Origin: a virus
DNA length: 37,608 bases
IMG/VR virus record: IMGVR_UViG_3300045988_118543
Location: 1-37,608 of that record
Strand: one strand, 5' to 3'
Below the pieces are notes generated by a model. It was given only the letters and a program-made list of their open reading frames with translations, was not told the origin of the DNA and searched no databases. Below, one piece after another: positions 169 to 27,847 of the stretch. A program made the position numbers and the translations under genes. Every line of letters begins with the position of its first letter. Within the stretch, counting starts at the first letter, position 1.

Positions 169-1665
169 CTATTTCTTTCCCAAAATTCGATTACCGATTT
201 CTGCCCAAACTTTTAAATATTCATTTAAGGCTTCTGTATCGAATTGAGGGAATGTTGGAATATCCGGTTTATCTTCTGGATCTTCCACTTCAATTGGTTT
301 TGATTTAAATACATCAAATTCTACATACATTACATCTTTATCAATTGGATTCGAAGTGTATTGATATAGGTCGCATAATTCGGAACGATCCGCATTTAGA
401 TTGCCATCATTTGAGATCCAAGCAGCGATCCATTTAGGATAGCCTGTTTCTTCGATATATGTTCCAAACCAACTCTCCGATGCGTAAATTCCTACATAAT
501 ATCCGCGCTCTTTGAAATATTCACAGAAGATTTTACAAGAACTGGTGCATCTATCTTTATTCATCACACCATTTTTGCCTTTGTAACCATCTACATCTTC
601 CATATCGAACCAGATACCAAGATCCGGCACGATATCATGTTCTTTTAATAAATTGTAAAGGAATCTAGCTTGTTCCAGTGCTTGCTCATCATTTAGCGCA
701 TAGTCATATAGATACACACCAAATGGAATGTTAGCTTTTCTACATTTTTCTACATTTTTTAAGAAGTATTTATCCTCATTCGTACCATATGCTGCACGAA
801 TGATTACAAATTCATACTTCGATACATCAAAGTCTCCTTGATGTTCCGAAATATCACAACCCCAATGTTTTACCTTTTCAGAGAAATCCGGTTTCTCCGG
901 TTCTTCATCCGGTCTTTCTGGATCAACCGGAACAGATGGATTCTCTTCCTTTACTTCACTAAAAGTTGCCCATTGATCATCACTGCCTTCAGCTGGTCTA
1001 GCTTCGGTAGGTGATACTGCTGCAAAGACACGAATGCTTGGGTCTTTGTCATATTTCCATGAGATATAACGATGCCCAAATCCAACTAATTTGTAATCAT
1101 ACTGTTGGACTTCTCCTTTATACATTGCGCCAAAAGCAGGACCAGTTGGACTATCACGATGCACTGTGATTGGAATATCGTTTCTAAAAGTAGCAACGCC
1201 AATTTCAGGTATCAGCATGCTTGGATCATAACTATCGGATGCACTTCCACCACCACTGAAACATTTAGGTCTGAAGGCAGTAGCGAATGTAGCACTGTAT
1301 GGAAGCCTTACGATGTTAAAAGCTCCACCAGCGCCTCCTTGGTTCTGGCCTAAGAAATTACCATATCCTCCACCTGCATCACTGTCAAAGATTGCAATAT
1401 GAGAATAAGGAGTCGCAGAACATTCAAAGAACACTGCAATGTCTCCTGGTTGCATCACGCTGACTTCATCGCAGAAATTCAAGATACCATTCGATGCACG
1501 ATTGTTCCAAATGTCTTTAACATAACCGGATGTTGAACAATGGATGCGACTGTATCCCAATCGTTCTAGATAGTACATTGCACCGTCCCAGCACTGGGCT
1601 CCATAATACCCATCTAGATCATAGGCACGTCCTAAGACTTGATTTTTAAAATCGATATAGTTCAT
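169..1665 (-). CDS. Endolysin with an N-terminal CHAP peptidase/amidase domain and a C-terminal GH25-type muramidase domain
   Basis: 498-aa ORF with RBS aggag 9 nt upstream of the ATG. CHAP-like motifs are DLDGYYGAQCWDG and HIAIF. GH25-like motifs are GCDISEHQG, FVIIRAAYG and FGVYLYDYA. It is the last gene of the lysis cassette, directly after the holin. Confidence 0.85.
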   Translation of the reverse strand: MNYIDFKNQVLGRAYDLDGYYGAQCWDGAMYYLERLGYSRIHCSTSGYVKDIWNNRASNGILNFCDEVSVMQPGDIAVFFECSATPYSHIAIFDSDAGGGYGNFLGQNQGGAGGAFNIVRLPYSATFATAFRPKCFSGGGSASDSYDPSMLIPEIGVATFRNDIPITVHRDSPTGPAFGAMYKGEVQQYDYKLVGFGHRYISWKYDKDPSIRVFAAVSPTEARPAEGSDDQWATFSEVKEENPSVPVDPERPDEEPEKPDFSEKVKHWGCDISEHQGDFDVSKYEFVIIRAAYGTNEDKYFLKNVEKCRKANIPFGVYLYDYALNDEQALEQARFLYNLLKEHDIVPDLGIWFDMEDVDGYKGKNGVMNKDRCTSSCKIFCEYFKERGYYVGIYASESWFGTYIEETGYPKWIAAWISNDGNLNADRSELCDLYQYTSNPIDKDVMYVEFDVFKSKPIEVEDPEDKPDIPTFPQFDTEALNEYLKVWAEIGNRILGKK

Positions 1666-2947: not shown

Positions 2948-2973
2948 AGCATGAAAGGAAGTGCTCTCATGCT
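2948..2973. promoter_or_regulatory. Hairpin spanning the recombinase translation-initiation region
   Basis: 7-bp stem agcatga (2948-2954) / tcatgct (2967-2973). The 12-nt loop aaggaagtgctc contains the recombinase SD. On the - strand the hairpin is followed by tttatttta, which is terminator-like. Confidence 0.45.
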
Positions 2974-3865
2974 ATATAAAGATTTAGTTTTAGACTGGTT
3001 GAAAAACCAAAAAATTTATCTGAAATATTCTACATTTACAAACTACTGTAATATCTCGCATAACCAAATCATTCCTAATCTAGGTGATTATGAAGTAGAT
3101 CAATTGAATAATGATATACTTCAAGAATTCATTTTGAATCGATTAAAGCAAGGTCGATGCGATGGAAAAGGAGGTATTTCTCAAAAATACGCTCAAGATA
3201 TTATTGCTGTATTAAAACTTACTTTAGGAAAAGAAGTAGAAATACAGCTTCCTTATTCTCCGCCTAAGGAGGTAGAAATTTTTGAAAAATCAGATCAAGT
3301 AGCATTGATTAATTCCCTCCAATCTAAAATAACAAATAAAAACTTTGGTATTCTTCTGACTATTCATACAGGGCTAAGAATTGGTGAACTCTGTGCTCTT
3401 AAATGGTCAGACATTAATTTTGATACACAACTTCTACACATCAATAAAACAATTATACGAACATACACAAAGGAAGATGGTTCCAAGTTAAATATCACAG
3501 CACCTAAGACACGTTCCAGCATTCGCACGATTCCTTTAAATAAGTGGATCATGCAATACGCTGTACTCCTCCGTGGATTAGATAATGAATATATCGTTAC
3601 AGGAAAAGAAAAATATATAGAACCGAATAAATATAGGTTGTACTACAATCGACAACTCAAAGATTTAGATTTACCACATCGTAAATTTCATTCTTTAAGG
3701 CATACATTTGCGACACGATGTATCGAGTGTGGTTGTGATTATAAGAGTTTGTCTGAACTCTTAGGGCATTCAAACGTATCAATTACAATGAATTTATACG
3801 TTCATCCACAACTTGAATTGAAACGTAAATGTGTTGAACTGCTAGCAGATTACTATGAGCATTAG
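2969..3865 (+). CDS. Tyrosine site-specific recombinase (XerC/D- or Rci-like), candidate tail-fibre shufflon invertase
   Basis: ORF track gives 2951..3865, but the ATG at 2969 lies 8 nt after AAGGAAG. Catalytic signature is complete: R in TGLRIGELCAL, K in KTRSSIRTIPL, HSLRH (H-x-x-R), and LGHSNVSITMNLYVH (H...Y). It also has an N-terminal SAM-like domain. This is a plus-strand gene embedded in the minus-strand tail-fibre module. Confidence 0.85.
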   Translation: MLYKDLVLDWLKNQKIYLKYSTFTNYCNISHNQIIPNLGDYEVDQLNNDILQEFILNRLKQGRCDGKGGISQKYAQDIIAVLKLTLGKEVEIQLPYSPPKEVEIFEKSDQVALINSLQSKITNKNFGILLTIHTGLRIGELCALKWSDINFDTQLLHINKTIIRTYTKEDGSKLNITAPKTRSSIRTIPLNKWIMQYAVLLRGLDNEYIVTGKEKYIEPNKYRLYYNRQLKDLDLPHRKFHSLRHTFATRCIECGCDYKSLSELLGHSNVSITMNLYVHPQLELKRKCVELLADYYEH

Positions 3866-4115
3866 TATGTCCTTTACGTCTGGAGCAGAAGGTGGAAATT
3901 ATTTAATTAAATTATTGGAATCTCAATTGCCACAGCACACACATACAGGTATGGGTGGACCTTTAATGATTGCCGGTGCTGGAGATAGATCACAAATTGG
4001 ATCAGGAACAAACGCCACTTATGGGACAACCAATGGTGGAGAAAACTGTAACAACGATGCTATAAACATTCAAAATCCTTATATCGTTGTTAACATATGG
4101 AAGAGAATTAGCTAA
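3855..4115 (+). CDS. Silent alternative tail-fibre C-terminal cassette A (promoterless gene segment)
   Basis: The reading frame continues from the core (MSFT|SGAEGGNY...LPQHTHTG...NIWKRIS). It is homologous at both ends to the C-terminal part of the 4398..4892 protein, and LPQHTHT is tail-collar-like. It has no SD of its own and starts inside the recombinase 3' end. Confidence 0.7.
   Translation: MSISMSFTSGAEGGNYLIKLLESQLPQHTHTGMGGPLMIAGAGDRSQIGSGTNATYGTTNGGENCNNDAINIQNPYIVVNIWKRIS
3864..3877 (+). repeat. Recombination core site A (agtatgtcctttac), + orientation
   Basis: The same 13-nt core gtatgtcctttac occurs at 4385..4397 and 4693..4705 on the opposite strand. Site A begins inside the recombinase stop codon. 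Confidence 0.8.
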
Positions 4116-4125
4116 CTCTCTTCCA
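4098..4125. repeat. 28-bp near-perfect palindrome at the convergent ends of cassettes A and B
   Basis: Sequence is tggaagaga-a-ttagctaa-c-tctcttcca. Both cassettes end with WKR(I/V)S-stop, and their stop codons overlap here. Confidence 0.85.
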
Positions 4126-4395
4126 CATATAAACTGAAAAATAAGGAATAATGTTATCAGCTATTTTTGTTTTACCATATGAAACATAAACATCAGCATT
4201 TGTTGTTTCTTTTTCATGAGATGTTTTACTAAAAGTCTCTGAAACTTGATAACCTGCATTAGTTGGATTCGCCCAATCATCACCATTCTGCACAAGAATT
4301 TTAGATCCGATTAAACCGTAATACTCTCTAAATTGTAGTCCATAATCATGATGATGCTTATATTTACCACCTGTTGAACCGGTAGTAAAGGACAT
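4108..4395 (-). CDS. Alternative tail-fibre C-terminal cassette B
   Basis: Starts at the ATG inside core site B (MSFT|TGSTGGKYKHHH...YMWKRVS), 2 nt after the stop of the expressed gene. It is homologous to the variable part of the 4398..4892 protein. No obvious SD. Confidence 0.7.
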   Translation of the reverse strand: MSFTTGSTGGKYKHHHDYGLQFREYYGLIGSKILVQNGDDWANPTNAGYQVSETFSKTSHEKETTNADVYVSYGKTKIADNIIPYFSVYMWKRVS

Positions 4396-4397
4396 AC
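4385..4397 (-). repeat. Recombination core site B (gtatgtcctttac), - orientation
   Basis: Exact 13-nt core match to sites A and C. It directly follows the TAG stop of the 4398..4892 gene. Confidence 0.8.
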
Positions 4398-4892
4398 CTA
4401 AGCGGTACGTCTAAACATATATACACCAATGCCAGGCATGATATTATCTGTATTTTCAGTTTTGCCAGATATCCCAATTTGAGATGCATTTGTTTCACTA
4501 TCAGTTCGATCGTTCATTGACTGTAAATCTGATGATCCAATATAGAGTCGCATGTTCTCGGGATAATTTGTTCCATTATTGATTTCTCGATAATCCATAT
4601 ACATTCGGTTGCCGCTTACGAAATGGTTCCAATCCGCACCAAGAGTTCCTGGATTGTGTTGATGCTTGTATTTTCCATACGTTCCTAGAGAAGTAAAGGA
4701 CATACTTGTAGTACCATCATCTCCTTGACCGGCGCCAATCAAAACTCGACCAGGAGCAAACGCTTCCCAAGTACCACCAAACAAGGTTCCTGGATTCGTT
4801 GAAGCGGTGCTAATATAAATAGAGCCGACCGGATATACCAGGTCGACCAGTTGACGTATTTTTCCTTTCGATTTAAATCTGAATAAAGACAT
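4398..4892 (-). CDS. Tail-fibre tip / receptor-binding protein (tail-collar-like): constant N-terminus plus currently expressed cassette C
   Basis: 164-aa [27 protein letters not shown] resembles phage tail-collar/baseplate fibre proteins. Core site C lies in frame at residues 64-67 (MSFT). The C-terminus YMFRRTA parallels cassettes A and B. Confidence 0.8.
4693..4706 (-). repeat. Recombination core site C (agtatgtcctttac), - orientation, inside the expressed gene
   Basis: Exact core. Its flanks form a 7-bp imperfect dyad, ACAAGTA-TGTCCTT-TACTTCT. Confidence 0.8.
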
Positions 4893-4908
4893 AATAATAC
4901 TTTACCTC

Positions 4909-5301
4909 CTATTGTTCAGTCATAGCTGCATCATTACCAGCTAACAATGACGTGATTTTGTCATTTAATTCTTTTCCTTTCGCCGCAGTCAAAGCGGATG
5001 TTGTACTTGTTGATGTCAAATTATCAGTAAGAGGGGGCTGTGGTCCAGTGTCTCCCTTATCACCTTTAGCCCCCGTCAAACCTTTGCTTCCATTTTTGAC
5101 ATTAAACGTTTGCTTAACACCATTTGATAGAGTAACAGTAATCACGTTTGTTCCAGAATCAGCAGATGATTCTGTTGTTTGCTCAATGCTTGTAACAGAT
5201 ACCCCATCAGCACCTTTAGCGCCAGGATCTCCTTTTGGCCCCTGAACACCTTGATTCCCTTGCGGACCCATCACGTTGCCAAGATCAACTCGTCTTGCCA
5301 T
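4909..5301 (-). CDS. Collagen-like (Gly-X-Y repeat) tail-fibre protein
   Basis: GPQGNQGVQGPKGDPGAKGADG and GAKGDKGDTGP triplet repeats. The N-terminus MARRVDLG is shared with the next gene. Confidence 0.75.
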   Translation of the reverse strand: MARRVDLGNVMGPQGNQGVQGPKGDPGAKGADGVSVTSIEQTTESSADSGTNVITVTLSNGVKQTFNVKNGSKGLTGAKGDKGDTGPQPPLTDNLTSTSTTSALTAAKGKELNDKITSLLAGNDAAMTEQ

Positions 5302-5311
5302 GATGCCACCT

Positions 5312-5893
5312 CTATTCTTGGTATGTTGCGATTAAGTGACCGTCCTCTATGCTCAACTCTGGAGTGACACCATCTTTACCAGCTGGCCCCTGTGGACCTT
5401 GTGGACCTTGCTCACCCTGATCTCCTTTAGGCCCTTGCTGACCTGGAGCACCTGTAGATCCAGTTTCACCTTTAGGCCCCTGAAGTCCTTGATCACCTTT
5501 CTCACCTTTTTCTCCTTGAGGTCCTTGTTCGCCTTGATCACCTTTATCTCCTTTAGGACCTTTGATATTTCCAGCATTTTTAAATTTTCCATTTGTTGAA
5601 TCTCCGCCAGAACCGACATAAACCCACAAAGTACCTGAATTATCTAAGTATGCATCTCCTGCTGTACCAGTTCCTGGTAATTCAGATTCATCAACTACAG
5701 AACCTTTGATATTTACTCCAGTTCCATCCTCGCCAGCTGGACCCTGTACACCTTGTACGCCTTGAGGGCCTTGATCTCCCTGATCACCTTTTTCTCCACG
5801 AGACGGTTTCAATAAGTCTGTTTCTCCTATGAACCAGTTCCCATTAACTCCAATGCTTGGAACAATACATCCTAAGTCTACTTCTCTTGCCAT
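5312..5893 (-). CDS. Collagen-like (Gly-X-Y repeat) tail-fibre protein
   Basis: Two long G-X-Y tracts (GEKGDQGDQGPQG... and GPKGDKGDQGEQGPQGEKG...). The ATG at 5893 is preceded by aggagg at 9-nt spacing. The ORF track start at 5926 is over-extended. Confidence 0.8.
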   Translation of the reverse strand: MAREVDLGCIVPSIGVNGNWFIGETDLLKPSRGEKGDQGDQGPQGVQGVQGPAGEDGTGVNIKGSVVDESELPGTGTAGDAYLDNSGTLWVYVGSGGDSTNGKFKNAGNIKGPKGDKGDQGEQGPQGEKGEKGDQGLQGPKGETGSTGAPGQQGPKGDQGEQGPQGPQGPAGKDGVTPELSIEDGHLIATYQE

Positions 5894-5906
5894 AAAATCA
5901 ATCCTC

Positions 5907-6485
5907 CTATTCTTCGTACTTAACAATTAAATGGCCTTTTTCATTTACATAAAAAGACGGTGCTCCTGCGCCGCCCATTGCTTTAATTTCATCTAGTTCT
6001 TGTAATATTTGATTAATTATATCTGGATATGTCTCTTCAAAAGACTCATCTGGTTCCAATCCTTCAAGAACCTGAGAACGAGCAACCGTGGTATTCCATT
6101 CATTCGTTACATCATCTTCAATCGATTTTTTTGCACATACGATGAAACGGACTATTCCACGTGCTTTTGCAACTTTTCTACTTATCAACCAGCTAAATGT
6201 GATATAGTCACCATCTGCTTTCATATCCTCACAATAATAACGGTCTTTTTCTCCTGCTGCATTTTCATAATTTACAAAGATAAAGAGTTCTGATAGATCG
6301 ATATTATCGCCAACAATTTTGGGACATTTGAAATATACTCTTTCTACATCTTCATCTGATTCAACCCCCAATGTTGAATATGTGTCTGGAACAAAAATCT
6401 CTCTAGTTTCAGGATCAATGTCACAATATTGAACTTCTTGAGATAATGCATCAAACGCCTGTAAGGCTTCTTTTAATGTTTCCAT
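5907..6485 (-). CDS. Tail-fibre/baseplate-associated protein (hypothetical)
   Basis: 192-aa ORF in the fibre module. Its C-terminal motif GHLIVKYEE resembles the C-terminus GHLIATYQE of the 5312..5893 protein. Confidence 0.55.
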   Translation of the reverse strand: METLKEALQAFDALSQEVQYCDIDPETREIFVPDTYSTLGVESDEDVERVYFKCPKIVGDNIDLSELFIFVNYENAAGEKDRYYCEDMKADGDYITFSWLISRKVAKARGIVRFIVCAKKSIEDDVTNEWNTTVARSQVLEGLEPDESFEETYPDIINQILQELDEIKAMGGAGAPSFYVNEKGHLIVKYEE

Positions 6486-7466: not shown

Positions 7467-7967
7467 CTATATTTCTACTTCAATCCAGCGTGCGCCGATA
7501 ATAATGCCGTTTTGCAAATCTAACTCTAGAACTCGTTTTGTACCACCAGAACCTCCTGAGTAGCATTTTGGTCGCAACAATCCACCATCTGGCCAAGATA
7601 GAGAAACGATATTAAACACCGCACCTCCACCAGGATATGCCGCACCACCTTGATTCTGCCCCATCCATTGACCGTTGTAATACATGGCAACGTGACCATA
7701 TCCTCCTCCGTATGCATTGGTCCATACTCCAATATCACCGTTTTGAGGATTACCTGTCACAATATCATGATTGTTCAGAATTCCATTACTGTTCCTCTGC
7801 TCCCATAAATCACGGGCTCCTCCGGTAGCAGTACAATGAATCGGATTGTACCCTAGCCATTGATCATAGAACGCATATCCGTCCCAGCACTGAGCACCGT
7901 AATATCCGTCAACATCATGACCGGTGCCGTTATACGTATCGATAAACGTTTGAAATGACTGCGCCAT
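7467..7967 (-). CDS. Tail-associated CHAP-domain peptidoglycan hydrolase
   Basis: DVDGYYGAQCWDG, GHVAMY and GQNQGG...FNIVSL...RPKCY are clearly paralogous to the endolysin N-terminus. The ATG at 7967 overlaps the Tal stop (TGATG), with an aggag RBS. Confidence 0.8.
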   Translation of the reverse strand: MAQSFQTFIDTYNGTGHDVDGYYGAQCWDGYAFYDQWLGYNPIHCTATGGARDLWEQRNSNGILNNHDIVTGNPQNGDIGVWTNAYGGGYGHVAMYYNGQWMGQNQGGAAYPGGGAVFNIVSLSWPDGGLLRPKCYSGGSGGTKRVLELDLQNGIIIGARWIEVEI

Positions 7968-9793
7968 CAATTGACTCCTGTAACGATCCCTTTTTCAACA
8001 GTTAATGAATTTTCGACTCTGTATGTTCCGGTCAGTCCGCCTTTTCCATTAATCGTAAGCACGGGTGTTCTGATTTGGATTGATTTATCATTTCCGCTTC
8101 GAGTCAAGAATATACTGCAGCTATCATCCCCGCTGAATGGAACAATATTAATTGACCCCGATCCATTATTGATATTCCCCCACATGTTGATTACTGGTTT
8201 ATTATCTGTTCCTGAATCAAGAGGTCCAACTGTGATTCCTGATGCTGAAAAGTTACCATCCGTAGCTTGTGTACCTAAATATAACCAATTTCCTATACCA
8301 ACATCTTTATAGGTGTTCAAGATTCCCTTGAACTCTCCGTCATTCATGACTAGCTCTCCAGTCTCCATGTTTAAATAGAATGTTCCATTCAAATCCGAAA
8401 GAATACCAGTGATTATATAATCAGCATGAATCGAACGATAATCTATAGCGGTTCCCCATTTCCAATCACTGCCGTCTTCTGTTCTCTCCATTGCAAGCAT
8501 CAAGCCCTGTGTTCCCAGACACAATGCACCATAGGAAGGAGATTCTGGATCTGTATCTTGCATCAAGATTGCTTTAACTTCTGTTTTATTCGCCCTGTCC
8601 TTTTGTGCCATCAACACGGCATTGGCAGCACTGATAACACCTTGCACTTTTTCTGCAATTACCGTATTTGTTTCTACATTTATTACTTTTTCAACCGCCG
8701 TCTTAACTGAATCGACATCATCAAAATAGTTATAAGATAATTCTCCTATTTCTACAGAATTGACTTTTTTCAAGATTGCATCCCAGATTAAACGAACAAC
8801 CCTGGTTTCAGATACAACATCAATGCGTTTGTTTCGACAGTGAACCGTATCACCCAGGCACACCTGTTCAAGTTCCTTTACATCTTCATATTCCTTTGAA
8901 TTTTGCAAAAGAAAAACATTGATTTCCCCACTTACAGTAGGTGCATCAATGCCAAGTTCAAACTGCTCCTGTGCTGCATTCCGTAAAGCTGCGTCCAGTT
9001 GTTCCTGTGTATCACATACGATGATGCCATTTTCTTCATCATCTTCCTGTGCATCTTCACGCATCTTGATATTACTAAATTCCATTGCCTTTTTATGGAC
9101 AATTCGATATTTATCAAGATTTGGACTGTCTACGACACCATTATTTGTCATAGTATGGCCGTTATAAGCTTTCGGTTTGATACGAGTTACGATATCTCGC
9201 ATATCTGTACTGATATGCATGCCATTCATATTCTTTCCGTAACGAATCTCTACATTTCTGTCAGATCCAACACGATTATTTACTGACACATGAAAATTAT
9301 CAAAATATATTTCTCCACCCCACCTTGAGATAAAGGAATTTTCATCTGAACCATTTAACGCCTCCATCAGGTTTTTGTCCACATAATAGGCTGTCGATAA
9401 TCGCAATATATCCGATGATCCAGTGTATTTAGAATTTGTGATAATTGAGTCCAATGCACCCTGACCATTCGTATCGGTCGGGCGTTTATCATCAATCCAG
9501 CAATCATCCATACTGTCATAGAAAATATGTTCCAGATCACATGTAACACCCTTATTATCATCAATATCATAGTTAACGATACGATACAGTTGTTTTTTTC
9601 CATCGGAAGCCGGTACTTTTATAACCGCATCATCCTGTATCCACTTCCACCTTCCATCCTCATCTAATGGATGATCTAACGATCCTAACCAGTCTCCATT
9701 CAATGTTGAATCTAAAAGACATTTGGTAGGAGTCAGTACAATATCACCGTTTTGATCATAATTGGTGTTTCCTTTTTTATATAATTGAATCAT
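7967..9793 (-). CDS. Tail-associated lysin-like / tail tip protein (Tal, prophage tail endopeptidase-type minor structural protein)
   Basis: The N-terminus MIQLYKKGNTNYDQNGDIVLTP... is typical of siphophage Tal proteins, and the gene sits directly after Dit. The ATG at 9793 overlaps the Dit stop (ATGA), with a ggaggtgg RBS. Confidence 0.75.
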   Translation of the reverse strand: MIQLYKKGNTNYDQNGDIVLTPTKCLLDSTLNGDWLGSLDHPLDEDGRWKWIQDDAVIKVPASDGKKQLYRIVNYDIDDNKGVTCDLEHIFYDSMDDCWIDDKRPTDTNGQGALDSIITNSKYTGSSDILRLSTAYYVDKNLMEALNGSDENSFISRWGGEIYFDNFHVSVNNRVGSDRNVEIRYGKNMNGMHISTDMRDIVTRIKPKAYNGHTMTNNGVVDSPNLDKYRIVHKKAMEFSNIKMREDAQEDDEENGIIVCDTQEQLDAALRNAAQEQFELGIDAPTVSGEINVFLLQNSKEYEDVKELEQVCLGDTVHCRNKRIDVVSETRVVRLIWDAILKKVNSVEIGELSYNYFDDVDSVKTAVEKVINVETNTVIAEKVQGVISAANAVLMAQKDRANKTEVKAILMQDTDPESPSYGALCLGTQGLMLAMERTEDGSDWKWGTAIDYRSIHADYIITGILSDLNGTFYLNMETGELVMNDGEFKGILNTYKDVGIGNWLYLGTQATDGNFSASGITVGPLDSGTDNKPVINMWGNINNGSGSINIVPFSGDDSCSIFLTRSGNDKSIQIRTPVLTINGKGGLTGTYRVENSLTVEKGIVTGVN

Positions 9794-18502: not shown

Positions 18503-20161
18503 TTATTTATAAGCCTCCTTCTTTGACATATAATCAGGCACTATATGATATCCGTATCGTTTTGAATACTTGATTTTAAAAACCGACGTTTCTTGTTCTT
18601 TTCCAGTAAAGTTATTAACAACCACTCCAATAATCTTGTCATTCGTCAGGATTATTTCTTCTTCTTTCCATTTTCCATTAGAGTCGTATGTGTTGATTCC
18701 TTTTTGTGCATACTGATTAACGATTTCCTTAATCTCTTCTTCCGATATTGTTAAATATGACGGCTTTACCTTTTGGTTTGATTGTTTCGTAGCATATTCA
18801 TTTGTGCCCGGAATATGCTTGTTCTGCCTTCCTTTAGCAATATCCATCTTATATCCTGATATATCTTCTTTCTTTGTCAAATAAATTATATCATTTTTAT
18901 CATCTTTTTTCTTTAATTTGATTCTTACAATACCATCATTCCCAGTAAAGGTCTCTGTTTCCTTTTTGATTTTCTTACTTGATACCTTTATCTTTCCAAG
19001 TCCATCGTTGTAGATGCGTTCTCTTTGCGTAGGAAGTCCCATCTTCTTAGTAAAATCATTGTATCTGGATATGGTGTTCTGGTACCTTGCCTGTTTAAGG
19101 ATCAACATATCCTTTGTTGCCTCATCCGCATCTTCAAGCCCTCTTTCCAAGAGACGTATATCCTGTCGATACTTTCTGGCAGTTCGTTCCAGGTACCTCT
19201 GTTGCTGCAAAGCTTCATAGGTCGTGTATTCCTTGCCGTTGTAAAGCTTTTTCTTGTTTTCTTCAGCAATCATTTCTTTCAGTTCATCATCTGAATATGT
19301 TCTGACCGATACACCTGGAATAAACGGCCTGTATGTGTGATAGCAATTGGCTCCACAGAGTCCTGTAACAGAACCCAGGCCACACTTGGTTACAAGTTCT
19401 TCCTTTGAGTACACACGGCCTTGCCACACCTGATGCGCCGGTCTAGCTCCTACGTGATAGGATATCTCAAAATAGTCTGTTCCAATTTCCTGTGCTGTTT
19501 GCTCATTGATTCGGCCCTGTATCTGTCTAAATCCGGTCAGCACTGTAGTTCGAACATGGGATACCATACCTCGATGTGCTCCACTTTCAAAATCAATGAT
19601 GCGGACTCCGGAAGTGGTCATCTTGTTGACCACTCTTTCAAGGACCTGTTCATAACTGAAAGCACCGCTTGAAATATCCAGGATTGCCTGATCCAGCTGT
19701 GACTGATAAAACGTTTGAAGCGGAGTAGCTATCAACTGACCATTTGGCTGTCGCAACACAAAGCCAAGTGATCTGGCCATTCCTCCAATGGTTTCATACG
19801 TCTGATCATGGATACCACTGACCAGCTGCTGCAGTTCGATATTGTCTTTATAAGGCACCTGCTCAAGACCTACAGTCTGAAATTCTCTGTAATGTCCATA
19901 ATATTCTTTATAAACTTCATCATCAAAGATTTTGTCCAGTTTTATCTCTGTACCTTTCAGTGCCTCTTTAAAATACTTAGCCACATCTTCTTCAGCAACA
20001 CCAAGAGATCGTAATCGATTCATCAGATAATCCGATGAAGCACCAGAGAAACCATTTTCTTTAATAAGATCGACCATTTTTTCCATGATTTTGATTTCTA
20101 GCTCTGAAAACATTTTAGCGATATCTTCACCAAAGTTTTCAATCTCACCATACTTTTTCAT
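18503..20161 (-). CDS. Head morphogenesis protein (MuF / SPP1 gp7-like) with a C-terminal polymorphic-toxin-like domain
   Basis: 552 aa directly after the portal. GLCGANCYHTYRPFIPG is typical of Firmicutes phage minor capsid/MuF proteins. The last ~109 aa (GRQNKHIPGTNEY...GKWKEEEII...FKIKYSKRYGYHIVP) match my recollection of the polymorphic toxin type 50 (Ntox50) signature. Confidence 0.75.
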   Translation of the reverse strand: MKKYGEIENFGEDIAKMFSELEIKIMEKMVDLIKENGFSGASSDYLMNRLRSLGVAEEDVAKYFKEALKGTEIKLDKIFDDEVYKEYYGHYREFQTVGLEQVPYKDNIELQQLVSGIHDQTYETIGGMARSLGFVLRQPNGQLIATPLQTFYQSQLDQAILDISSGAFSYEQVLERVVNKMTTSGVRIIDFESGAHRGMVSHVRTTVLTGFRQIQGRINEQTAQEIGTDYFEISYHVGARPAHQVWQGRVYSKEELVTKCGLGSVTGLCGANCYHTYRPFIPGVSVRTYSDDELKEMIAEENKKKLYNGKEYTTYEALQQQRYLERTARKYRQDIRLLERGLEDADEATKDMLILKQARYQNTISRYNDFTKKMGLPTQRERIYNDGLGKIKVSSKKIKKETETFTGNDGIVRIKLKKKDDKNDIIYLTKKEDISGYKMDIAKGRQNKHIPGTNEYATKQSNQKVKPSYLTISEEEIKEIVNQYAQKGINTYDSNGKWKEEEIILTNDKIIGVVVNNFTGKEQETSVFKIKYSKRYGYHIVPDYMSKKEAYK

Positions 20162-25640: not shown

Positions 25641-27847
25641 TAGTCTCCAGGTCGGATGACGTACCCATTTTTGACCGAATATCCTGCCTGTTTGACCCAG
25701 CTTCGAATCGTGCTGTCCGGCTTGTCAAACTTGGCCATGAGGTCCTTTATCATGACCGGATCTCCGTAATTTTCTAAATCTATGAAGTTGTCGATAGCGA
25801 TCTTTTTATCGTTTCTTGACTTCTGTGCTTTCTTCTTGGCAGAGTCTGAAGCTTTCTTCCACAAAGGTTTTGCCTCTTCCGGATTGATGTCTTTCAGCAC
25901 CCCTGTATGATCCCAGTGATGCACCGGATAGTCGAACCAAAGATTGACCGGTTCGAAGCGTTTGAACTCACGCAGGGTGCCTTCAATGCGCCATGCTGTA
26001 CGAGCCTTTGTCTTTGCCCTTACGTCCTTCAGTTCCTCCGTGATCTGCTTGTACTGCGGTTTTAAAAGGTCCCTGCACCACTCCAGCATCTTTATCTGAC
26101 TGAACTGATCATCAATCGGTATCTGGTCCTGCAGGTTATATCTGCGCAGCCATTCCATGCAGAACTTGCACACTGCTTTGTTTTCTTCCTGCTCTCTGAC
26201 CGCATCGGATACTTCCAGTTCGATAAGGTCCAGAAGTGCATCCGGGTCTCGAGCGAATACTCCAGAACCACTGGCACGGTCCATTGATCGTTTGCCTCCC
26301 TGCGCTCCCTTTGAATGATGGTGACAGTAGATCACCGCACACTCAAGCTCGGTACATACCTTGTCAAACTGATTACAGAACTTGGCCATCTGATCCGCGC
26401 TGTTCTCATCTCCCGTGATGACCTTGTAGATTGGGTCGATAATGATGGCTATATAGTTCTTTTTTGCTGCACGTCTAATGAGTTTAGGTGCCAGTTGATC
26501 CATTGGTACCGATTTACCACGTAGGTTCCAGATATCAATGTTATTAATATGATTAGGTTGAAGATGCATAGCTTTGTACACATCATCAAATCGGTGCAAG
26601 CATGAGGCTCTGTCAAGTTCTAGGTTGACATACATTACACGTCCTTGTTTACAATCCCATTCTAGCCATTTTGAACCTTCTGCTAGAGCAATCGTTAATT
26701 CTATCAATGCAAAGGACTTACCTGCTTTAGATGGGCCAGATATCAACATCTTATGTCCGCAGCGTAAAACTCCTTTAATTAGCTCTGGAGAAAGACTTGG
26801 CATCTCGTTCCAAACATCGGCCAGGTTCTCAGGATCTGGAAGATCATCATTGACCGATTCGATCCATTCTTCCCATTCGTTCCAAGATGACTTACCGATA
26901 TTTGTATCGATCAAAAACTGCTTATTCTTTCCTCGCTTGATACCCGGCATTCTGGATAAACGGCTTGGGTTCTTGTTTTGCTCATCGATGATTAGACCGT
27001 TCTTTTTACATATCTTATATAAGAAATCTACACGCTTACGGTATTCTTTATTGTCGGCTGCATCCACCTTTACGATAGCGTGAATGGACTTTCCACCACT
27101 GTACACTAGACAAGCTACTGGTAATTCTAATTCACGTATCAAGGCATTCTGCTTGGCCAGATCCATATCATCACATTCAACCAATGCATATCTAAACTCT
27201 GTTACGTTGGAATTCTTACACCCGTTACCATCCAACGGATTGAAACGGATCCATGCACCTGCTTCTTGATCATAGTCTCCCATGACAGCCCCAAGATCAC
27301 CTTTACAACCTCTTAGCTCAGAAATAAGTTGACCAGCTGTCTTTTTGTAAGAACCTTGTGTAGGTACATGTTTTCCATCTTCATTTACCCAAGATTTTGT
27401 AACAAAACCTACAATGTCCTCATCGTTAAACAACGTTTCCAGATACTTTATTAACTCGTTTACTGGTTTCCACTTTCGTCCATCTGGTTGCTCGATAGGT
27501 AATACCTCTACATTGTTTGAATCTACTACCACATAATCGTCAGAAATCTCGTCATCCCAACCAAGAGCTATTGTTTCTTGTCTTATTGACGGAACATATC
27601 CTCGATCATAAGCCATCTGATAAATTGTTCCACCAGTAACAATATTTCCTGATTCTTCCTTGAATGATTCCCATTTAGATCCGCACTCTCCAGGATGGTA
27701 TCGAGCAGAGTCTTTCTGACTCCACTCTTCCCAATCCCAGGCACTGAATCCTTCATGTTTCAACGCCATTCCAACATTGACCCATTCCTGATAGTTCAAT
27801 GTTGAAGGATCAATATACTTAAGTAGTTCTTTAATATTACTTTCCAT
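25640..27847 (-). CDS. DNA primase/helicase (PriCT-2-like N-terminus, central primase-polymerase-like region, RepA/AAA_25-like ATPase)
   Basis: 735 aa. YQEWVNVGMALKHEGFSAWDWEEWS resembles PriCT-2. Walker A motif is ISGPSKAGKSF and Walker B-like motif is AIIIDPIY. The C-terminus is HTH-like. Confidence 0.75.
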   Translation of the reverse strand: MESNIKELLKYIDPSTLNYQEWVNVGMALKHEGFSAWDWEEWSQKDSARYHPGECGSKWESFKEESGNIVTGGTIYQMAYDRGYVPSIRQETIALGWDDEISDDYVVVDSNNVEVLPIEQPDGRKWKPVNELIKYLETLFNDEDIVGFVTKSWVNEDGKHVPTQGSYKKTAGQLISELRGCKGDLGAVMGDYDQEAGAWIRFNPLDGNGCKNSNVTEFRYALVECDDMDLAKQNALIRELELPVACLVYSGGKSIHAIVKVDAADNKEYRKRVDFLYKICKKNGLIIDEQNKNPSRLSRMPGIKRGKNKQFLIDTNIGKSSWNEWEEWIESVNDDLPDPENLADVWNEMPSLSPELIKGVLRCGHKMLISGPSKAGKSFALIELTIALAEGSKWLEWDCKQGRVMYVNLELDRASCLHRFDDVYKAMHLQPNHINNIDIWNLRGKSVPMDQLAPKLIRRAAKKNYIAIIIDPIYKVITGDENSADQMAKFCNQFDKVCTELECAVIYCHHHSKGAQGGKRSMDRASGSGVFARDPDALLDLIELEVSDAVREQEENKAVCKFCMEWLRRYNLQDQIPIDDQFSQIKMLEWCRDLLKPQYKQITEELKDVRAKTKARTAWRIEGTLREFKRFEPVNLWFDYPVHHWDHTGVLKDINPEEAKPLWKKASDSAKKKAQKSRNDKKIAIDNFIDLENYGDPVMIKDLMAKFDKPDSTIRSWVKQAGYSVKNGYVIRPGD

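Follow-up and report, generated by a model that had tools for sequence, protein, structure and literature searches.

A putative multi-cassette shufflon at the fibre-tip gene of a temperate phage of human-gut Erysipelotrichaceae

Why would a temperate phage with an integrase at one end of its genome carry a second, smaller tyrosine recombinase beside the gene for its tail-fibre tip, with promoterless reading frames lying between the two? The locus that raises this question occupies positions 2,948 to 4,892 of the IMG/VR virus record IMGVR_UViG_3300045988_118543, which we analysed over its full length of 37,608 nucleotides (nt; 37.6 kilobases, kb) and refer to as the window. Judging from the sequence, we consider it highly probable (roughly 0.85) that the locus is a multiple-inversion system, or shufflon, served by an armless tyrosine recombinase. 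The comparisons behind this reading are between contigs; related loci are labelled L001 and onwards, and database proteins P0001 and onwards.

In the mechanism that we propose, the small recombinase would recombine pairs of inverted 13-bp cores. The minus-oriented core that adjoins the 63-codon constant segment of the tip gene would be the sole site that is transcribed and translated with a ribosome-binding site, so that whichever cassette lies behind it would supply residues 64 to the end of the protein. In the current state of the window this would be cassette C. Inversion between sites A and C would bring cassette A into expression (145 amino acids, aa), and a further inversion, between site B, by then in plus orientation, and the constant-side site, would do the same for cassette B (158 aa). 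Each cassette would contribute a conserved first strand region (G-G-K-Y-K-H) and a last strand (W-K/R-R-x-x) that pack against the constant N-terminus and leave the divergent middle as an exposed surface. The product would be a trimeric tip protein of the Gp10_C type, carried by a collagen-like tail fibre at its end.

The array and its crossover sites

The candidate invertase gene marks the distal edge of the fibre module and lies between the fibre genes and the lysis genes; an initial annotation of the DNA had placed it in the middle of that module. The TAG stop codon of the gene (3863-3865) overlaps the first base of site A (Table 1). Its product contains the domains PF14659 and PF00589 only, without an arm-binding domain, and its closest solved relative is the Int protein of Tn1549 (6emy), with which the full catalytic set (R, K, HxxR, H and Y) aligns. 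No match to the serine recombinase/resolvase family was found among the 39 open reading frames (ORFs) of the window that were scanned.

Two other kinds of system were considered for this enzyme and rejected. The protein scores 21.4 bits in the FimB/FimE-type family test (NF007370/NF007371; cut-off 221), and a FimB/E-type invertase was discarded on this score. In the test for the integron-integrase signature (TIGR02249), it reaches 42.6 bits against a cut-off of 265. An integron, which would capture cassettes, was rejected on the family score and because the cassettes occur in both orientations and form in-frame fusions with a constant gene. At the start of the recombinase ORF, a minus-strand hairpin (2948-2973; a 10-bp stem followed by a run of T) overlaps its first codons. 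This suggests that the ATG at 2969 is the true start, in agreement with the gene callers, which prefer this codon (298 aa). The hairpin could also block read-through from the fibre operon, although the scan for promoters and terminators as a whole gave nothing exceeding the shuffled background.

The target of the array is a stand-alone gene whose product matches PF21939 with 64.7 bits (gathering threshold 27) over profile positions 2-139 of 139, and the family profile of this target matches the C-terminal domain of T4 gp10 (2fkk) with an E-value of 5e-20. It is the last gene of an operon in which two collagen-like fibre-shaft genes lie directly upstream. These are the probable carrier of the variable tip, and among some homologues, such as P0115, Phage_fiber_rpt and Gp10_C occur in one protein. 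The constant N-terminal segment is the most conserved part of the family; an AlphaFold model is confident only in this segment (predicted local distance difference test, pLDDT, 73-85) and at the last strand. The crossover falls within a single Gp10_C fold, at about profile position 54 of 139, so that one scaffold would display interchangeable surfaces.

Cassettes A and B are convergent, with overlapping stop regions, and each is open from core to stop. Their identity to the variable part now expressed is 34-39%, with most of the similarity at the two ends, and cassette A on its own gives a weak match to the C-terminal part of the Gp10_C profile. Where the convergent ends meet, they form a 36-nt palindrome (4076-4147; 75%, no spacer) in which the conserved ...W-K-R-x-S stop is encoded on both strands, and which might have an additional role as a hairpin or terminator.

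The core itself, GTATGTCCTTTAC, is a 13-mer of which the window holds exactly three copies, at the three cassettes, and no exact copy elsewhere. Allowing up to two mismatches adds a single match, at 26709 and thus 22 kb off, where about 0.83 would be expected by chance. Longer and imperfect repeats surround the cores (38-nt inverted repeats of 74-76% and a 49-nt direct repeat of 73%). Across 147 unique sites of related loci, the consensus A-N-GTATGTC-N-TTTAC is near-invariant, and the conservation extends to positions that the protein does not demand. The wobble base of the Phe codon is T in all 147 sites, while the late genes of the phage use TTT 54 times and TTC 33 times, and the GT that precedes the ATG is kept in 144 of the 147 sites, despite being non-coding in silent cassettes. 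The wobble bases of the Ser and Thr codons vary freely. As far as these sequences can tell, the core is constrained at the DNA level.

The flanks of the sites indicate where the strands would be exchanged. Positions -3 and -1 segregate with the upstream context and position +14 with the cassette, from which it follows that the exchange falls inside the core. Core position 8, which is C, T or A about equally and never G in the 147 sites, follows neither cassette nor upstream context (55% vs 38% identity), so that the exchange point can be placed only between -1 and about +14. If position 8 belongs to the overlap region, it could limit which sites pair.

On these points the initial annotation held up well: it had described a complete tyrosine recombinase, a core in frame at residues 64-67 (MSFT) of the 164-aa gene, the same 13-nt core before the open frames of cassettes A and B, and variable parts homologous at both ends. 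All of this was reproduced, the coordinates and the core copies exactly. Its predicted fusion sizes of 164 aa (C), 145 aa (constant + A) and 158 aa (constant + B) were likewise obtained, and database proteins of the latter two kinds exist.

Rearrangements and cassette repertoire in related phages

IMG/VR contains 57 loci with relatives of the recombinase, most at 72-95% identity, and in the approximately 45 that span the region the order is always the same: recombinase, a plus-oriented site, the array, a minus-oriented site and the constant segment. The first site is always plus and lies 3-12 nt past the recombinase stop, and the last is always minus and abuts the constant segment. Between these fixed ends, each locus has 2-8 sites at up to two mismatches to the core, in 12 orientation patterns; a looser match (three mismatches, ATG intact) raises the count to as many as 9 in some loci.

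The most direct evidence for inversion comes from L042, in which both flanks are colinear with the window and the segment from site A to site C is inverted, at 95-96% identity. The window has the junctions recombinase-core-A and constant-core-C, and L042 has recombinase-core-C and constant-core-A, the swap being exact at the core. L042/L106, L105 and L107 all have the A-B-C block turned round with respect to its two flanks (95-96% cassette identity), and L101 shows this in part. In L102, the array ends with a plus site, cassette A reading forward, cassette B reading back, a minus site and the constant segment, so that cassette B is the expressed one. In other words, both inversions that the initial annotation had predicted are represented among related phages, the A x C inversion with breakpoints exactly at the core, and the second one by the layout of L102. 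The larger clade, too, contains clean inversions of blocks, between L071 (6+ 2+ 4-) and L089 (4+ 2- 6-), and between L079 (4+ 11-) and L088 (11+ 4-). Overall, locus pairs with flanks at least 88% identical differ in arrangement in 78 of 80 cases.

The same exchanges are visible among database proteins. In the protein collection, the constant segment is joined to cassette A in P0022 (145 aa; a cluster of 121 sequences), to cassette B in P0011 (158 aa; 63 sequences) and to cassette C in P0001 to P0004 (164 aa), while P0005 ('MSISMSFT...', 90 sequences) is cassette C read from the recombinase-proximal position. Among the contigs, cassette A is fused to the constant part in L042, L101, L105 and L107, cassette B in L102, and cassette C lies silent beside the recombinase in L042, L103 and L104. 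Over all database proteins, at least 9 different C-termini follow this N-terminal segment or one nearly identical to it, at least 6 of them distinct from A, B and C. A further protein, P0034 (225 aa), joins a PF07670-type membrane protein to the C-terminal half of cassette C; this chimera is probably a mis-assembly in a 1.9-kb contig.

Decay of the cassettes, which the initial annotation had named as an observation that would speak against its proposal, was not seen. Cassettes A and B are open in frame, and 145 of 146 cassettes from 43 loci are intact ORFs of 66-106 codons, with a median length of 90 codons for silent and expressed cassettes alike. A motif test found the conserved terminal W-(K/R/H)-R-x-x in 118 of the 146. 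When cassettes were clustered at 90% identity or more, 22 clusters had several members; 13 of these contain both expressed and silent copies, and 14 occur in both orientations. The pooled repertoire amounts to 43 cassette types at 50% identity and 88 at 90%.

No fewer than 11 related contigs terminate within the shufflon or at its edge (L001-L004, L043, L050, L051, L055, L058, L075 and L083), L102 and L104 do likewise, and one 36.8-kb contig (L043/L105) has both of its ends inside the array. Such breaks are how an assembler is expected to behave when a sample contains several forms of a locus; they are an indirect sign of heterogeneity and not proof of it.

Table 1. Features of the array and its fibre operon in the window, and recombinase loci of the outgroup on their own contigs
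Feature	Position	Strand	Remarks
Armless tyrosine recombinase, putative shufflon invertase	2951..3865	+	304 aa; PF00589, E-value 4e-25, and SAM-like core-binding domain PF14659
Crossover site A	3865..3877	+	exact GTATGTCCTTTAC; adjoins recombinase; junction swapped exactly here in L042
Silent cassette A	3867..4115 (ORF from 3855)	+	82 codons from the ATG in the core; without ribosome-binding site of its own
Silent cassette B	4108..4395	-	95 codons; open frame
Crossover site B	4385..4397	-	exact GTATGTCCTTTAC; directly after the stop codon of the expressed gene
Expressed fibre-tip gene	4398..4892	-	164 aa; PF21939 Gp10_C, E-value 2e-17
Cassette C, expressed variable part	4398..4703	-	codons 64-164 and stop; part of the 164-aa ORF
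Crossover site C	4693..4705	-	exact GTATGTCCTTTAC; in frame in the expressed gene, codons 64-67 (MSFT)
Constant N-terminal segment	4704..4892	-	codons 1-63; AGGAGG ribosome-binding site upstream, 4903-4908
Two collagen-like fibre-shaft genes	4909..5301 and 5312..5926	-	PF22337 Phage_fiber_rpt, PF01391 Collagen; PHROG tail-fibre families
Outgroup recombinase loci, possible invertible elements	L108 (MT835594.1) 1576-2996; L109 (MT837341.1) 1063-2502; L008 5157-7707; L009 3356-4504		

Alternative explanations

The explanation that competes most seriously with an active shufflon is one in which the array was shuffled over evolutionary time and is fixed in the present phage, without a population-level switch. 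We regard it as unlikely, yet it accounts for a number of observations that weigh against our reading. The arrangement of the window is unchanged in three independent samples. Near-isogenic pairs that differ in arrangement were not found among the related loci, and both pairs with flanks at least 97% identical share theirs. A search for variants within a sample found none: scanning metagenomes for the constant-side junction returned one contig, L107, which is a variant of another lineage, and the protein collection has no entry that exactly joins the constant allele of the window to its A allele. Switching within populations would be an extrapolation from differences between contigs, and the case for catalysis by the small recombinase consists of its adjacency to the array and its co-conservation with it. 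Furthermore, the recombinase gene is truncated in several relatives (L087, L090, L091 and L092), which means that the system can be lost or locked. Against a fossil array stand the full-length recombinase with its complete set of catalytic residues, the identity of the three cores at 13 of 13 positions, and silent cassettes that are as intact as expressed ones. In addition, the arrangement turns over far faster than the flanks diverge, and the array breaks many assemblies.

We judged it less probable still that the differences arose when phages infecting or residing in the same cell exchanged cassettes through general homologous recombination, with the recombinase acting as a second integrase or in dimer resolution. 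The 5' ends of the cassettes are alike over 38-49 nt (about 75%) and their 3' ends are conserved, which would offer homology to such a process, and positions 15-17 downstream of the core appear mosaic. The repertoire also differs from one related phage to another, and inversion would not produce this without exchange or without gain and loss. However, at 13 bp the core on which the breakpoints lie is shorter and more sharply conserved than RecA-type exchange would allow, whole blocks are cleanly inverted, and the core bears the synonymous-site constraint described above. Moreover, the recombinase adjoins the array in every complete locus, and the genome has a separate integrase. About as improbable, or slightly more so, is the idea that the cassettes are independent small paralogous genes, started at the ATG of the core, so that a number of tip fragments would be made simultaneously and no fusion would be programmed. 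An ATG (MSFT) does open every cassette, gene callers annotate the cassettes, and re-initiation is conceivable at cassette B, whose ATG lies 2 nt past the stop of the expressed gene. The cassettes have no ribosome-binding sites, though, and about half are oriented against the operon. They also lack the N-terminal 63 residues, which form the most conserved part of the Gp10_C domain, and other phages have the same cassettes as in-frame extensions of the constant part.

Within the shufflon reading, the relatives with truncated recombinase genes would be locked shufflons. The deletion in L091 (at 3949/3950 of that contig), which corresponds to positions 3268-4311 of the window, removes the 3' part of the recombinase gene together with cassette A and the greater part of cassette B, and neither of its ends lies at a core.

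A separate question is what the variable part does. From the location of the gene at the end of the fibre operon, homologues of the P0115 type that combine fibre and Gp10_C domains, and the hypervariable middle, it would be expected to bind a host receptor and alter the host range; the 'receptor-binding' label of the initial annotation thus reflects position and homology. Two points count against it. The C-terminal domain of T4 gp10 is a baseplate adaptor and not a receptor binder, and the AlphaFold model falls below a pLDDT of 50 at residues 81-146, in the variable part, with a mean of 56.5.

Known inversion systems and genomic setting

The initial annotation did not recognise the locus as a described system, and this view has to be revised. 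A shufflon named Rin, presented in 2018 as the first tyrosine DNA invertase to be encoded by a phage, is known from the Bifidobacterium breve and B. longum prophages Bb423phi1, Bl157phi1 and Bl30698phi1, in a report that included induced, assembled virions (Mavrich et al. 2018, PMC6109161). It comprises an armless tyrosine invertase, variable cassettes (Rv), a constant gene (Rc) and 11-bp rix sites (PMC6109161), and was found again in 2022 in clade-1 prophages of Eggerthella lenta (PMC8778435); both hosts are Gram-positive. In its architecture, to which the comparison refers, our locus agrees with the Rin-type shufflon throughout (PMC6109161). The armless recombinase (304 aa) is distinct from the integrase (374 aa), a promoterless array of C-terminal cassettes lies between the recombinase and the constant 5' part in the window and in 45 loci, and a short asymmetric repeat stands at every cassette and inside the full-length gene and is rare elsewhere.

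Both systems have small promoterless cassettes that are weakly similar to each other, with rearrangements at the repeats (in our case between contigs), and both occur in temperate phages of Gram-positive gut hosts. They differ in host phylum (Bacillota, family Erysipelotrichaceae, for the window; Actinomycetota for Rin) and in core (13 bp, GTATGTCCTTTAC, as against 11 bp, TTCCCTAACCC). The target, which is cargo and not mechanism, differs too. In Bifidobacterium it is a TP901-1/1358-like receptor-binding protein, and the Eggerthella cassettes often carry H-type lectin domains, whereas in the window it is a 164-aa stand-alone tip of the PF21939 Gp10_C kind. Unlike in Rin, the crossover lies inside a single fold.

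Other comparisons are more distant. The shufflon of R64/IncI1 plasmids (Rci, sfx, pilV) also uses a tyrosine recombinase and multiple invertible segments to swap the C-terminus of an adhesin in frame behind a constant N-terminus, and its site is likewise described as asymmetric, with one conserved side. It belongs to a conjugative plasmid, the protein that it varies is the tip adhesin of a pilus rather than a phage fibre, and its site sequence and target fold are different; no Rci-specific family match to the window recombinase was seen in the family searches, in which Rci was not compared directly. Gin of Mu, Cin of P1 and Min of p15B resemble our system in that phage-encoded inversion swaps the C-terminal part of a tail fibre, with multiple cassettes in the case of Min. 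These are serine recombinases, which work with an enhancer and Fis, whereas the only candidate in the window, the enzyme adjacent to the array, is a tyrosine recombinase (PF00589). The T4 gp10 C-terminal domain (2fkk; PF21939) shares with the tip protein the YPVGSIY...GGTW motif at the N-terminal side and the QPY..VY.W.R strand at the C-terminal side. In T4 it belongs to an invariant baseplate wedge protein of 602 aa, while in the window it forms a protein by itself, placed at the tip of a collagen-like fibre and hypervariable in its middle.

More recently, a 2026 preprint describes a tail-fibre shufflon in BV01-like phages of Phocaeicola vulgatus, with a 10-bp directional core, TGGGAGAACT, and activity seen through read junctions (PMC13596623). 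These too are temperate gut phages in which a recombinase lies beside a 1.7-kb multi-cassette region overlapping the distal end of a tail-fibre gene; the Bacteroidota host, the core and the carbohydrate-binding fibre target are different, and the text consulted does not state the class of the recombinase (PMC13596623). Programmed inversions of tail-fibre genes form a recurrent class in a systematic survey (PMC9881135).

No description of a shufflon from a phage of Firmicutes/Bacillota, or of Erysipelotrichaceae, was found in the open-access literature that was searched, and a blastn search of GenBank phages with the region gave no match. In our estimate, it is somewhat more probable than not that the locus is part of a large and so far undescribed clade, made up of shufflons with Rin-like tyrosine invertases in phages that infect Erysipelotrichaceae of the human gut; this proposed clade would number more than 50 contigs in IMG/VR alone. 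Such a clade would add no new category of mechanism. Phage shufflons are one of the few routes by which a population can be pre-armed with several receptor specificities; those with tyrosine recombinases have so far been reported from Actinomycetota, and the present locus would extend the design to gut phages of Bacillota, in which it appears to be common. At 164 aa, the tip protein is also a compact scaffold, for which dozens of interchangeable inserts occur naturally. The finding could be of use for predicting the hosts of Erysipelotrichaceae phages, for understanding why gut virome assemblies break and for engineering receptor-binding modules.

The nearest outgroup recombinases (33-39% identity) come from gut phage contigs and from Bacteroidales and Lachnospiraceae metagenome-assembled genomes (MAGs). 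Each of these genes is itself flanked by inverted repeats (29 nt, 97%; 24 nt, 100%; 750 nt, 78%; 17 nt, 100%). They look like self-contained invertible elements, and the repeats hint at a wider clade of gut DNA invertases.

The window comprises nearly all of a temperate phage genome, and over the whole 6.5-kb stretch compared it is identical to a 37.6-kb scaffold from a human-gut metagenome (ENA ERZ28595520). On the minus strand, it encodes a terminase, portal, capsid, tape measure, Prophage_tail (Tal) protein, the collagen-like fibre genes and the Gp10_C gene, in this order; beyond the small recombinase follow an ORF of unknown kind, a holin and an endolysin. The window showed no sign of a sheath protein, so that the tail is likely that of a siphovirus. 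A second and larger tyrosine recombinase (374 aa, PF00589; 36018..37142), at the opposite end of the genome, fits a prophage integrase, and the small recombinase is therefore not needed for integration. Relatives of the small recombinase at 60-74% identity are found in Erysipelotrichaceae genomes and MAGs (Holdemanella, Floccifex, 'Firmicutes bacterium M10-2'), one of them within a 597-kb scaffold and thus in a prophage. We conclude that the phage is probably a temperate siphophage of human-gut Erysipelotrichaceae, with Holdemanella- or Floccifex-like hosts.

Two further genes of the window drew our attention. The first (18503..20161, minus strand) encodes a 552-aa protein with a Phage_min_cap2 domain (SPP1 gp7/MuF-like head protein) and a C-terminal Ntox50 toxin domain, which we take to resemble the MuF-type polymorphic toxins of phages. 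The second, an ORF of 167 aa in the tail module (7467..7970, minus strand), has no Pfam match and shares an N-terminal 'GYYGAQCWDG' CHAP-like motif with the CHAP + GH25 endolysin (169..1665, minus strand); it may be a tail-associated lysin.

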